The translations under genes were made by a program, and so were the position numbers. The notes under the pieces were generated by a model that was not told the origin of the DNA, searched no databases, and saw nothing but the letters and a program-made list of their open reading frames with translations. Below, one piece after another: positions 3,754 to 14,812 of a stretch of DNA of 25,701 nucleotides. The stretch comes from a virus. Its lineage: Duplodnaviria; Caudoviricetes. The stretch is from positions 1 to 25,701 of the IMG/VR virus record IMGVR_UViG_3300038520_002359. The stretch is one strand, 5' to 3'. Position 1 is the first letter of the stretch, and each line of letters starts with the position of its first letter.

Positions 3754-3774
3754 GGCGACTCGTTTCATGCTACG

Positions 3775-3804
3775 AGAGGAGGGGCGAAAGCTCCTCCTCT
3801 TTTT
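3775..3804 (+). terminator. Rho-independent terminator
   Basis: AGAGGAGGGGC-GAAA-GCTCCTCCTCT stem with a GNRA loop, followed by a T tract. Confidence 0.85.
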
Positions 3805-3822
3805 ATCTCTACTAACAAAAAT

Positions 3823-9164: not shown

Positions 9165-10747
9165 TATGATTGATTATTTTGGTCTTCTTTTATTTCTTCA
9201 ACCTTCGGCTTCGGAGTGCCAGCAACCTGAGCGCCTTCAATTACGTCACCGAACTTATCAAACAGCGGTCTTTGAATACCAATTTCATACATGTATTGTC
9301 TGTAAATATTTTGCTTCTCTTGCGAGGTATATGGTTTATCTGTATCTGGATTTATTGCTGGAAGGTTATTCACAATATCCATAACAACTTGCTTGTTGTA
9401 TTCGAACCTAGTTGGGTCGTCTCTCTCTAGAACTTTAAGAGCATCTAGCTCAAGTTGCTTCTGCTCGACGATGTTGCCAAGCAGTCCAGCCTTGGATTGC
9501 GCTCTCATTGCAGGATCAGGATACGCCTTGCGTCTTTGCGCGTCGGTCAATCCGTCTTTACCTACAGAAGCCTTACCTCTTTGGACTTCGTTGAAGTCTG
9601 GCTTCGCGTCCATTCTGGCTTCACGATCCCTGGATGCTTGAGCGAATGAACCGCCCTGCTGGACTCTTTGAAGCTGCCTGTTGGACATTTCTTTTGCTGC
9701 ATCACTTTGCAAGAACTTCTGTTGAGCTGCTCTATCCTCCTGTCTGCGCTGTCCTTCCAGTGCATTCATTCTGGCTGCTGTGTTAGCATCCGCAAAGGCT
9801 ACGTTGCCAGAGGCATCAATAAATGGTTTAAGTCCTGGTGCTGGCTCTCCAGATATAACTGGATTACCCTGCTCTGCCTGTTGTGCTTCTAGGCGATTCA
9901 GATCCTCCATAGATATCTCTTGGGTCTGAGTAGCCATTGGATTTTCAGCTGTTGGAGCTCTTACTATGCCCATTATTCTTGGGTCTCCACCTTCCTCTAG
10001 CGGAGGAAGCGTGTATGCACCCAGAGCTGTTCCTGGTGCAGCCATTTGCTGATCAGTAAATCCTGGACCCCTTGGAGCTAACGCCTCTGCTTCAGTCTTA
10101 GGTGTTTGAAATGGAACTGGAGCTTGCTCGGGTATAGGAGTTTGAGCTACTGAAGCTGGAACTGTTGGGAGTTCAGGAGTTGGTGCAACCGCTGGAGCTT
10201 CTGTAGTTGGTGCAGCTGCTGAGTCTGCTGGTTCGTCTACAACAGGATTGTTAAATTTTTCGTATCCCGTTATTTTTCCCCTTCCTCCAAAAATTGGTTT
10301 AGTGGGATTGAAGCCCTTGGCAATAAGATCCCTCTCCTTGTCAGTCATTGGACCTCGATTTGTGCCACCAGCCATCTTTCCATATAAATTAGCTATTTTA
10401 CCGCTAATGTCGAACTGATTGTCCAGAAAATTTCCAACAGAATATCCTCCAGCCAATGCTGCAAGCTTAGGCATTCCAAGAAATGCTGCACCTCTGCTTA
10501 AAAAAGGAACTGAGGTCTTTGCTCCAATAATAGCAGGAATCGCAGATGTAGCCGCAAATCCAGGTGTAAGGGTTTCGTCCGCAATTGTTTCAACGGTTCC
10601 ACGATTACGACTCCGCGCTGCAGGTTTTTGCAAGTTTGCGCGTGCACGTGCATTAGCGTCACCCCTTGTTGCGGTTTTTTGTTTGGGCATGTTGCCCAAC
10701 AAAGTTTCTTGTGGATCTTTGTTTCCTCGGTTTCTTCCTCTTGGCAT
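9164..10747 (-). CDS. Putative internal virion protein with a Pro/Ala-rich linker
   Basis: 527 aa with a basic N-terminus, a hydrophobic Gly/Ala stretch and a PAV/PT-rich linker. TAATG coupling to the 1242-aa gene. Confidence 0.5.
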   Translation of the reverse strand: MPRGRNRGNKDPQETLLGNMPKQKTATRGDANARARANLQKPAARSRNRGTVETIADETLTPGFAATSAIPAIIGAKTSVPFLSRGAAFLGMPKLAALAGGYSVGNFLDNQFDISGKIANLYGKMAGGTNRGPMTDKERDLIAKGFNPTKPIFGGRGKITGYEKFNNPVVDEPADSAAAPTTEAPAVAPTPELPTVPASVAQTPIPEQAPVPFQTPKTEAEALAPRGPGFTDQQMAAPGTALGAYTLPPLEEGGDPRIMGIVRAPTAENPMATQTQEISMEDLNRLEAQQAEQGNPVISGEPAPGLKPFIDASGNVAFADANTAARMNALEGQRRQEDRAAQQKFLQSDAAKEMSNRQLQRVQQGGSFAQASRDREARMDAKPDFNEVQRGKASVGKDGLTDAQRRKAYPDPAMRAQSKAGLLGNIVEQKQLELDALKVLERDDPTRFEYNKQVVMDIVNNLPAINPDTDKPYTSQEKQNIYRQYMYEIGIQRPLFDKFGDVIEGAQVAGTPKPKVEEIKEDQNNQS

Positions 10748-10753
10748 ATCGGT

Positions 10754-10762
10754 ATTATATCA
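10754..10762 (-). promoter_or_regulatory. Extended -10 promoter (TGnTATAAT), probably giving a leaderless mRNA
   Basis: TGATATAAT with 6 nt before ATG 10747. The same motif and spacing occur at 19560-19568. Confidence 0.55.
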
Positions 10763-10779
10763 TATTAGTTGTGTTTGTG

Positions 10780-10800
10780 CAGTTAATGAATCCAACTGCC
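10780..10800. repeat. Left arm of the inverted repeat closing the ribozyme element
   Basis: AATCCAACTGCC (10789-10800) is the exact reverse complement of 11209-11220. Pairing extends to ~20 bp with one mismatch and one bulge. Confidence 0.85.
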
Positions 10801-10806
10801 ACGCAT

Positions 10807-10922
10807 AGCAAGCCCTCTTTCGAGGGGTTTGGCGAGTCATACACCTCCCCTCCGCCCCTTACGTCCCTTTCGGGCCGCAGGTAGCTCGGGTCGGGTTCCT
10901 ACGTCGCTCAAGCGGTATGGCG
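10807..10922 (-). other. Predicted 116-nt circularised exon with SD and a junction-spanning 39-codon ORF
   Basis: Lies between omega-G 10923 and the candidate 5' splice-site U at 10807. GGAGGGGAGGU precedes AUG 10840, and there are two GAAA tetraloop hairpins. Confidence 0.55.
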
Positions 10923-11104
10923 CATTATGTTATCGCTGCGGTTCTTTATCTGCAGCTTCTGCATGTTACCATGCAGTTCAGACTATCTCTTCATCTTTCG
11001 ATGCAGGGCGCTCTTGGGCAAATTACTGTCCGTTCTGAACTCGTTACCTAGTCGTTGCACCTTCTCAAGCATTCCTGCCCGAGCTTGGCTCAGGATTGTC
11101 CTAT

Positions 11105-11170
11105 TGGTGGAGGTGGGTGGAATTGAACCACCGTCTCTAGCCGAGGCTAGATCGATACCCTTGCACCCCC
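11105..11170 (-). ncRNA. tmRNA-like tRNA(Ala) domain with no mRNA-like domain, nested in intron P5
   Basis: GGGGGUG-CAAGGGUAUCGA-UCUAGC(CUCG)GCUAGA-GAC-GGUGG(UUCAAUU)CCACC-CACCUCC-ACCA. It has a 7-bp acceptor stem with G3.U70, A73 and encoded CCA, a T arm, no D stem and no anticodon loop. Confidence 0.85.
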
Positions 11171-11208
11171 AAGGAGTTCCCCTGAATTCACCCTGTATTG
11201 CCCTTTTG

Positions 11209-11230
11209 GGCAGTTGGATTTATTAAACTG
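11209..11230. repeat. Right arm of the inverted repeat closing the ribozyme element
   Basis: GGCAGTTGGATTTATTAAACTG is complementary to 10780-10800. Confidence 0.85.
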
Positions 11231-11240
11231 TCAAAGAAAA

Positions 11241-11996
11241 TTAGTATATAAAAGCAAAGAACCAAACGTCACAAGCGCTAACAGCCCTATTCCTTGCGCC
11301 CTTGTATTGTTGTGTTATTAAATGAGCGTCGTCCATTACTTCTGGTTGGTAACCCGCCCACATCCATGCTACTATAGCAAGGTTCCACCTTACCTTGCAT
11401 TTAGCAAGTTCAACTAAAGAAGAGTCCTTAGTTGCTAGGTATTCATCTATTCCAGATGAAACTTGAGCCATGTCAGCGCTAGATGGAGTCCAAAAAAAAT
11501 TAGGATCGGAATCGCCAAGAAGAAACCCACAAGTGTCTCCTCTTTCTGCAGTTTCAAACGGTTTTGGATTTCCGCAAAACATTCCCCTGGAACCATATAA
11601 GTAATAAGGAACCACATCAATGTTGAACCTGTATCTAGTAAATGCACTTTTTAAATCCGAGTTAGAAAGCATATGTCGAATGCTTCCATCCTTATGCTTG
11701 TAATAACCTCCTAGGTCTCCGAACCTTCTTGTCTTGTGCCTGTGATCTGGGTTGGCAGTATCTATTGAATTCAAGTCAGACGGATTAATATTATCCCACC
11801 GTATAATCCTTGTGCAATAATGCATATACTTTTGAGCTGATCCTCCTCCATTATGCCCCAGGGCTTCAGTCCCAGGGAAGTCAGGTGGGTTGTCTTGCAC
11901 TGTTGATTCTACGGATGTAGTCATCCTTGGCAAGGAATCCACGTATGTAGTAGGAGCAAGCTTGTCATCCTTGTTGTTAGGAAACCAATTAGCCAT
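11241..11996 (-). CDS. Hypothetical protein
   Basis: 251-aa ORF tightly packed in the late arm; no motif recognised. Confidence 0.7.
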   Translation of the reverse strand: MANWFPNNKDDKLAPTTYVDSLPRMTTSVESTVQDNPPDFPGTEALGHNGGGSAQKYMHYCTRIIRWDNINPSDLNSIDTANPDHRHKTRRFGDLGGYYKHKDGSIRHMLSNSDLKSAFTRYRFNIDVVPYYLYGSRGMFCGNPKPFETAERGDTCGFLLGDSDPNFFWTPSSADMAQVSSGIDEYLATKDSSLVELAKCKVRWNLAIVAWMWAGYQPEVMDDAHLITQQYKGARNRAVSACDVWFFAFIY

Positions 11997-14143: not shown

Positions 14144-14812
14144 TTACTTATTCTTTCTTGCCAAGTAACGATTATACTGGATTTTATCTTTGCCTCTAAG
14201 CTTCTTTATTTTAGCCTTGGTCATGTTATCAAACCTAGAACCAACTGCACTTGCACCTCTAGGAGCAGCTTTTTTAACAGCTTTTTTCTTTGCTTGAGCT
14301 ACTGCAAATGTTTTAGCTGCTGTTCCCTTGTTTCGTTTCTCTAAAGCTTTTGGTTTAGCACCTGCAGGAGCTGCCTTCTTCTTTGCTGGGGCTTTTGCAA
14401 CCTTTGCTGCTTTTTTCGCTGCTGTCTTTGTGCCGAACTTTATTGGAGCCTTTCCTGACGTTGCTGCTGGCTTTGACGGTGCTGGCTTTGCTGCTGACCC
14501 TCTCTTTCTTCTGCCACTAACTACCTTTGCACCTGCAGCTCCAGTTCCTATAGCAGCGCCTCCACCAATAACCTTAGCTCCTGTTTTTTGAACTTCTGAT
14601 TTAGGAATAAAGCCTCGCCTACCAGACTTCGTGAAAGAACCCCTTGCGCCTCTTTTTAATCCTGGTGTAGCTGCATATCCCACGCCTTCGGCAGTCTTCT
14701 TAGCTGCACCAACAACTTTTTTGCCAGCCTTTGTTTTGGCTGCTTTTTTTGCTGCTTCCTTAGAAGCTTTTAGAGCAGCTTGACCGCCTCGTATTAGTAA
14801 TCCAATGTTCAT
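14144..14812 (-). CDS. Lys/Ala-rich histone H1-like basic protein
   Basis: Repeated KKAAK/KAPAKKK/KPA motifs and very few acidic residues. Confidence 0.7.
   Translation of the reverse strand: MNIGLLIRGGQAALKASKEAAKKAAKTKAGKKVVGAAKKTAEGVGYAATPGLKRGARGSFTKSGRRGFIPKSEVQKTGAKVIGGGAAIGTGAAGAKVVSGRRKRGSAAKPAPSKPAATSGKAPIKFGTKTAAKKAAKVAKAPAKKKAAPAGAKPKALEKRNKGTAAKTFAVAQAKKKAVKKAAPRGASAVGSRFDNMTKAKIKKLRGKDKIQYNRYLARKNK

Follow-up and report, generated by a model that had tools for sequence, protein, structure and literature searches.

Phage tmRNA genes reduced to the tRNA-like domain (TLD) have a described precedent in mycobacteriophage DS6A, which is listed as "TLD only" by Hudson, Lau and Williams (PMC4131195); that paper states that a DS6A-like molecule strongly inhibits tmRNA, perhaps via titration of SmpB. 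Nawrocki et al. (PMC11915505) count nine standard-form CDS-less genes and note that the DS6A form inhibits tmRNA in E. coli. Natural back-splicing is described for the coral mitochondrial ND5-717 group I intron (PMC6545197) and for circularly permuted group II RNAs in bacteria (PMC8637638). A literature search that covered few subscription journals listed no paper that places a TLD within a group I ribozyme, and none that describes compact phage ribozymes of group I with a natural permutation. Both statements on inhibition by the DS6A form reportedly go back to Mao et al. 2009.

Here we describe a phage locus that touches on all of these systems. The reading we favour, to which we give a little less than an even chance, is that of a tag-less mini-tmRNA in loop L5 of an intergenic permuted ribozyme, which would close a 116-nt circle and from which host enzymes would then release the mini-tmRNA to compete for SmpB. 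It is built on the anatomy of the TLD, a 66-nt difference from sister loci, the intact ribozyme core, the intergenic position and an inverted repeat, all of which can be read off the DNA, and on reactions that are predicted or inferred.

Genomic setting of the locus

The window, by which we mean the whole 25.7-kb phage contig that was analysed, has its replication genes (exonuclease, endonuclease VII, Erf, SSB and DnaB) in a block on the plus strand and its structural genes, among them an SU10-type capsid, in a block on the minus strand. TLD and ribozyme sit together in a 493-nt gap that runs from the stop codon of a 251-aa gene (11241) to the start of a 527-aa gene (10747); these and the other features of the locus are collected in Table 1. 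A sister phage, L032, in which the upstream protein is 76% identical, has the same ribozyme at the same site. Elsewhere in the window, a Lys/Ala-rich ORF of 222 aa with a histone-like composition (14144-14812) has no PHROG or Pfam match, and its position is kept in L032.

Table 1. Features of the locus, with positions counted along the window
Feature	Position	Strand	Basis or remark
Upstream phage gene, 251 aa, function unknown	11241..11996	-	intact; stop 38 nt ahead of guide sequence
Downstream phage gene, 527 aa	9164..10747	-	ATG at 10747
Group I ribozyme, guide sequence to predicted terminal G	10923..11202	-	Rfam RF00028
Ribozyme helix P3	11195-11189/11010-11004	-	core landmark
Ribozyme helix P5	11175-11172/11102-11099	-	brackets TLD
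Ribozyme helix P7	11053-11049/10985-10981	-	core landmark
TLD-only mini-tmRNA, 66 nt, encoded CCA, in ribozyme loop L5	11105..11170	-	Rfam RF00023 and fold
Internal guide, predicted, with the wobble expected at G 11202	11198..11202	-	register as in P2-less homologues, 3 nt before P3
Strand of permuted P1 with the predicted 5' splice site, U 10807 being the last base before the cut	10807..10811	-	downstream of core
Inverted repeat, 5' arm; closes opened P1 loop	11209..11247	-	repeat I1, 39 nt, 74%
Inverted repeat, 3' arm	10762..10800	-	pairs with 11247-11209
Structured "exon", predicted circle, 116 nt	10807..10922	-	97 nt in L032, 96 nt in L118

The upstream 251-aa protein has no PHROG or Pfam match, and of its 15 matches ten were aligned, all ten sharing the C-terminal column. 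Since this end column is constant in the aligned sequences, no gene is interrupted by the ribozyme, and a role of the ribozyme as interrupter of the upstream gene was rejected.

Promoter-like sites number 6, which is not above shuffles (3.2 +/- 2.1), and one of them, a weak one, lies at 11272-11243. A -10-like hexamer at 10759-10754 ends 6 nt short of the downstream gene's ATG, as is also the case in L032 (4170-4187); it is possible that in both phages the transcript of this gene is leaderless.

A tRNA-like domain of tmRNA without a tag frame

The Rfam tmRNA model, a check proposed by an earlier note made from this DNA alone, matches exactly 11105-11170 on the minus strand and scores above its cut-off (49.8 against 47 bits, E 4.9e-17); both ends of the model are matched, about 312 central positions are absent, and the whole match is nested within that of the group I model. 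The unit folds with a 7-bp acceptor stem with G3.U70, followed by A73 and an encoded CCA (ACCA being unpaired), a stemless D region of 12 nt ending in UCGA, and, after the trinucleotide GAC, a T arm of a 5-bp stem and a 7-nt loop. Its centre consists only of a 6-bp hairpin with a 4-nt loop (16 nt), with no pseudoknots and no tag frame. T arm and D region have tmRNA-type flanks and correspond to the SmpB-binding surface, though their conserved columns are partly imposed by the search patterns used below. Every feature that the earlier note had listed is confirmed by Rfam and the fold at its given position, on the minus strand. The folding energy is modest (z -2.26), with 7 of 200 shuffles equally good. 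ARAGORN, the other program proposed, disappointed: its default run made no gene call, at the TLD or otherwise, and the seven low-threshold calls of a relaxed run were disregarded.

A separately named metagenome contig, L063, carries the cassette at 100% identity, TLD included, which argues against an assembly error; L063 may belong to the same phage population.

The mRNA-like domain of a full tmRNA, with resume codon, tag and stop, is absent from the 66-mer, and an ordinary tRNA would have a D stem and a 7-nt anticodon loop, neither of which is present. The earlier note had itself allowed that the unit might fit better to an attP remnant, which would come from a host ssrA gene, or to a degenerate ordinary tRNA, and the tRNA model does score 30.9 bits (cut-off 29) on the identical sequence of L063, in a run in which the tmRNA match was not listed. 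Against this stand the 49.8 bits of the tmRNA model, the presence of both TLD ends rather than the 3' end alone, and the covariation across the TLD family described below. In addition, a check of the 3' end against host ssrA ends gave no exact match in the genome collection, and no integrase match was found among the 28 window proteins scanned from this partial genome. This alternative is largely refuted, and we regard it as extremely improbable; judged by its sequence, the 66-mer is the tRNA-like domain of a tmRNA without a tag frame, as the earlier note had proposed, and not an ordinary tRNA. A relaxed ssrA-end pattern had matches in many phyla (120 listed of about 1900 estimated); in 3 of the 120 listed our script recognised the 5' end, the best of them with 11 mismatches in 50.

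Related mini-tmRNAs in other phages

Two pattern scans of viral contigs recovered 10 and 20 TLD loci, on 21 distinct contigs and with units of 66-82 nt. All 21 of these other copies score above the tmRNA cut-off, and all are free-standing, in several contexts, without a single group I match in their flanks; the closest, on contig L007, is 92% identical to the 66-mer of the window. Seven duplicates were dropped, and the remaining 14 distinct sequences were aligned with that of the window (15 in all). In this alignment 99.6% of cells pair, with two-sided changes at 11 of 18 pairs; in the central 6-bp stem, which the search patterns left unspecified, two-sided changes occur at all six. None of 500 shuffles reached these values, and slid controls dropped to 50-60% paired, the tests being inflated by the relatedness of the sequences. 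The invariance of G3.U70 and CCA adds no evidence of its own, both having been required by the search patterns.

The contexts of the free-standing copies include one that recalls the window. On three contigs (L001, L003 and L009) the TLD follows a terminator-like hairpin behind ssb and lies just ahead of dnaB, and on L009 the gene order is that of the window, endonuclease VII-Erf-SSB-DnaB, with Erf 63% and DnaB 40% identical. The window has a terminator-like hairpin between ssb and dnaB as well (3754-3822), with no TLD there. By these comparisons the TLD is a member of a mobile phage family. A blastn search of the insert against annotated phages gave only partial matches of the tRNA-arm type among the best 25 matches listed.

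Two further contigs have sub-threshold matches to twister-P1 (40.2 bits) and RAGATH-24 (31.8 bits), at 158-320 in L013 and 2148-2310 in L014, in both about 900 nt upstream of a free-standing mini-tmRNA.

An intergenic group I ribozyme, probably permuted

The Rfam Intron_gpI model (RF00028) matches 10959-11247 with 82 bits (E 1.1e-19). Besides the helices in Table 1, the ribozyme has P4, P6, P7.1, P7.2, P8, P9 and P9.1 and lacks P2; the hallmarks of a group I core (P3, P4, P6, P7 and the guanosine site) are all present, and the core strands are complementary in homologues. We take its subgroup to resemble the phage group I introns of the td/Twort type. The terminal G at 10923 was chosen by eye, from its position after P9.1 and from a presumed likeness to td/Twort-type 3' ends.

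Lying between two genes, the ribozyme interrupts neither; the other mark of a conventional intron, a U.G 5' splice site upstream of the core, also appears to be missing, although L032 has a local U.G hairpin. We also weighed an intron of the ordinary kind, or a decayed one, whose 5' splice site would be local or upstream and for which the pairing downstream of the core would be incidental. Such an intron would make sense of a perfect hairpin at 11212-11199, where P2 or P1 is expected, with its U.G pair in L032 (this local hairpin could be an ordinary P2 or P1), and of a U-ended splice-site look-alike upstream, at 11257-11253. However, the look-alike is C-ended in L032 and in a second sister ribozyme, L118, splicing upstream would swap the C-terminus conserved in all 10 aligned proteins, both local hairpins have a probability of at most 0.03 in the full fold, and the core is nearly unchanged between the window and its sister (95% over 182 nt), unlike a relic. 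We hold the ordinary-intron explanation to be highly improbable.

A permuted arrangement is what the folds favour. In the unconstrained fold of the precursor, the guide (11202-11198) forms a 5-bp P1 with 10811-10807, ending in a U.G wobble. With 90 nt more of upstream sequence the U.G pair reaches p 0.76 in the free fold and 0.92 once P3 is forced; for the upstream look-alike at 11257-11253, p is 0.00. The predicted splice-site strand is conserved in L032 and L118; the permuted P1 of L032 is weak in the fold (0.15 free, 0.46 with P3 forced). The whole element is bracketed by the 39-nt inverted repeat, a helix with p near 1 in the unconstrained fold. Its duplex energy is -27.5 kcal/mol in the window, as against -9.7 +/- 2.5 in shuffles, and -30.5 kcal/mol in L032 (0 of 300 shuffles in each case; z -7.1 and -8.0, respectively), and the changes of L032 in the core repeat arm preserve pairing via G.U or A-U, as judged by eye.

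Since the predicted terminal G (10923) comes ahead of 10807, the core would precede the splice site, and splicing in its two steps would circularise 116 nt. The predicted circle (10922-10807) has no Rfam match and folds as a rod with repeated GA/GA internal loops; the rod-like fold is found in all three versions, the window exon having a further hairpin, some 20 nt long, that L032 and L118 lack. As judged by eye, ligation would produce a second copy of the motif found at 10835-10826, and a short stem could form across the junction. The features to be expected of a permuted ribozyme, a U-ended guide partner past the terminal G and a closing helix of the P1 loop, are thus both predicted here, and we read the element as probably a natural permuted ribozyme of group I, with a 116-nt circle as its predicted product.

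Homologous ribozymes without P2

P7 could be recognised in 103 ribozyme-like loci. Of these, 16 conform to the P2-less register (G, three bases, a 3-nt joiner, P3), and an Rfam group I match was obtained in all 15 loci checked. A U-ended complement to the locus's own guide lies 60-80 nt past P7 in 9 of these 16, as against 6 of 87 other ribozymes and a background of 57 of 1008 non-partner 4-mers (5.7%) for that zone, figures to be read with the subgroup rule and the 60-80 nt window having been set after seeing the data and with many of the loci being related. Within 55-330 nt of P7 a partner of the own guide is found in 15 of the 16 loci; that of the window is at 169 nt, outside the narrower zone. 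Non-cognate 4-mers also occur in the 60-80 nt zone, in L220 (GGGU-type, 60 nt), L042 (AGGU-type, 63 nt) and L185. Two of the 16 loci, L055 and L185, have the look of ordinary introns. The remaining 14 show four versions of the guide, and in the variants L120 and L220 the partners have changed to match, at 66 and 72 nt.

Upstream genes end 0-44 nt ahead of the guide in 10 of the 11 assessable loci. None of the 11 upstream proteins, that of the window included, has a Pfam homing endonuclease match; they are therefore not recognisable homing endonucleases, and we dropped the idea that an endonuclease in the P1 loop causes the upstream stop codons. A closing helix as a general trait of the permuted relatives was likewise discarded, being significant in only 2 of the 14 loci (the window and L032). 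The upstream ORFs of seven loci (L033, L036, L042, L045, L065, L072 and L093) have no Pfam match and, as seen by eye, an aromatic C-terminal motif ending in G-W; they may form a single protein family linked to the ribozyme.

In most relatives the exons are short, about 13-25 nt, and often there is a start codon a few bases past the cut, as would suit a ribozyme that is an mRNA cutter only, performing the first step and parting two genes with no stable circle, and leaving the story of the TLD unchanged. For the locus of the window we think this unlikely, as the exon is here 96-116 nt long, rod-like in three versions and provided with a strong closing helix, and the base before the wobble G can pair with the first exon base in 14 of 14 loci, an argument that is partly circular given the choice of the terminal G by eye.

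Some loci hold more than one such ribozyme. On the minus strand of L160 (471-966) two P2-less group I ribozymes stand 278 nt apart in tandem, and after each come a short hairpin and a U-ended site matching the guide; the tandem arrangement recurs in L168, L364-L368, L370, L371 and L373. In L160 the second ribozyme could make use of the first exon in the ordinary order. Several group I core fragments within 1.8 kb of L086 suggest a ribozyme cluster.

The TLD in loop L5: a recent insertion

The earlier note had placed the unit exactly between the P5 strands; the positions of the strands held, but the fit is not flush, with linkers of 1 nt (11171) and 2 nt (11104-11103). The ribozymes of L032 and L118 occupy the same site, have cores 95-98% identical to that of the window and are exactly 66 nt shorter in L5. 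Two readings suit the junction: the mature unit was inserted cleanly, or 66 nt were deleted in a shifted register. The pair of window and L032 alone therefore gives no direction; outgroups do. In the next closest outgroup ribozymes P5 and L5 together come to 12 nt. Among 176 unique P3/P4 motifs, 137 L5 loops were measurable (median 19 nt), and one of the 137, the sequence shared by the window and L063, contains a TLD.

Further searches for sister loci found only the L032 contig in one case and 11 loci with no new ribozyme sequence in another, and the L032 record (55% complete) has no tmRNA-family match elsewhere in it. Two viral scans for other cases of a TLD or tRNA in L5 yielded no locus and one locus of another arrangement, L031. 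There (1941-2680), a complete tRNA-Leu is directly followed by an apparent group I intron fragment, the 3' portion beginning at P5, which holds an HNH-like ORF on the opposite strand; neither a 5' half nor an Rfam intron match was seen.

Given sisters without the insert and one TLD in 137 loops, the insertion appears recent and lineage-specific, not a conserved control device; sequence comparison indicates that the TLD in L5 is the derived state. The earlier note had suggested a control device, an idea that the comparison does not support: the sister ribozymes lack the insert and all 21 other copies are free-standing. A switch, in which host RNase P cleavage of the TLD would nick or destroy P5 and so control the ribozyme, is permitted by the geometry, and excision would take away the loop that closes P5. 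Yet the arrangement is not conserved (neither of the 2 sister loci has it), and group I cores tolerate breaks in peripheral loops, as established with engineered permuted introns. We judge the switch quite improbable.

In the fold of the whole precursor, the TLD acceptor stem (p about 0.92) forms alongside P5 (p about 0.9). A U(-1)-A73 pair is predicted as well (p 0.9), and P5 ties leader to trailer; in this model the pairing and the closure by P5 could hinder RNase P. Both would suit a TLD that is a neutral passenger, embedded in a tolerant loop, inefficiently released and without effect on trans-translation, as would its occurrence in a single lineage (window and L063 being one sequence), the sister ribozymes that manage without it, and the insertions of 41-65 nt and more that L5 tolerates in other ribozymes. 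What speaks for more than a passenger is that the TLD boundaries are those of the mature ends, that no pair is broken and that P5 pairs fully, with U-A in the window where L032 has C-G, although recency alone could explain an intact TLD and an intact P5. We consider a mere passenger unlikely. On the reading we favour, a mobile phage gene would have landed in a ribozyme that is transcribed and tolerates the insert, and the two would not be partners in one evolved device.

Proposed pathway and its significance

In the pathway that we favour, the cassette would be transcribed with the late-region genes or from the weak promoter-like site upstream. The guide, at the 5' end, is predicted to pair with the splice site behind the terminal G. 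Exogenous guanosine would then cut after 10807, with G added at 10806, and the freed 3'-OH would attack the terminal G, closing the circle and parting upstream from downstream mRNA. If known tmRNA biology applies, RNase P would cut 5' of 11170 and nucleases would trim to CCA; because this trimming calls for cleavage within the 3' strand of P5 or past it and destroys P5, release would come most simply from the spent ribozyme. By the same biology AlaRS would charge the 66-mer via G3.U70, and the alanylated 66-mer may bind and compete for SmpB, dampen trans-translation in the host and lower the tagging of phage products. The SmpB-titration idea matches, by analogy, the published DS6A-like RNA (PMC4131195, PMC11915505). 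A fuller version, in which one 460-nt cassette gives two non-coding products, a back-spliced 116-nt circle and an RNase P-excised, alanine-chargeable anti-tmRNA from L5, is tentative and, in our estimate, rather doubtful.

The mini-tmRNA alone is of a known kind and its nesting is a one-off; the probable permuted ribozyme is the more surprising part. If active, it would be a natural counterpart of the engineered permuted intron-exon system for circular RNA, its own closing arms included, and a phage group I ribozyme doing a job other than gene interruption. The window, with the insert, and L032, without it, form a natural control for the hosting and release of a tRNA-like domain in a ribozyme loop, and the 66-mer makes the effect of a phage TLD-only RNA on host ribosome rescue directly testable.

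Comparison with known systems

The TLD-only tmRNA of DS6A, compared here by its published description, is likewise phage-encoded and of standard order, has little beyond the tRNA-like domain and no tag frame, and has SmpB titration proposed for it; the unit of the window differs in its 66 nt with a 6-bp hairpin and in being nested in a ribozyme loop. The window TLD passes the sequence tests of a DS6A-like RNA, its processing, charging and SmpB binding being predicted. CDS-less organellar tmRNAs (mitochondrial, and the plastid genes of about 65 bp in Mallomonadaceae; PMC11915505) are of the same size class and have no tag frame, but they are resident organelle genes, whereas the TLD of the window is a phage gene whose host presumably has a full tmRNA.

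The intron-form tmRNA genes (883 sequences with a group I intron in the T loop; PMC11915505) also combine an intron and tmRNA ends in one locus. There the intron interrupts the tmRNA and splicing restores it; in the window the relation is reversed, a whole TLD lying inside the ribozyme. With td/Twort-type phage introns (Rfam RF00028) the ribozyme of the window shares the P3-P9 core, the P7.1/P7.2 extensions and the terminal G; it differs from them in being intergenic, in lacking P2, in interrupting no gene and in having its guide partner predicted past the terminal G.

Permuted intron-exon order leading to a circular product is common to ND5-717 and the circularly permuted group II RNAs, and the latter also stand alone between genes. 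In ND5-717 a giant insert opens P8 and back-splicing restores an mRNA, whereas the ribozyme of the window is compact, with a predicted opening in the P1 loop. The permuted group II RNAs use branching chemistry; the element of the window is a group I ribozyme of a bacterial virus, its activity a prediction.
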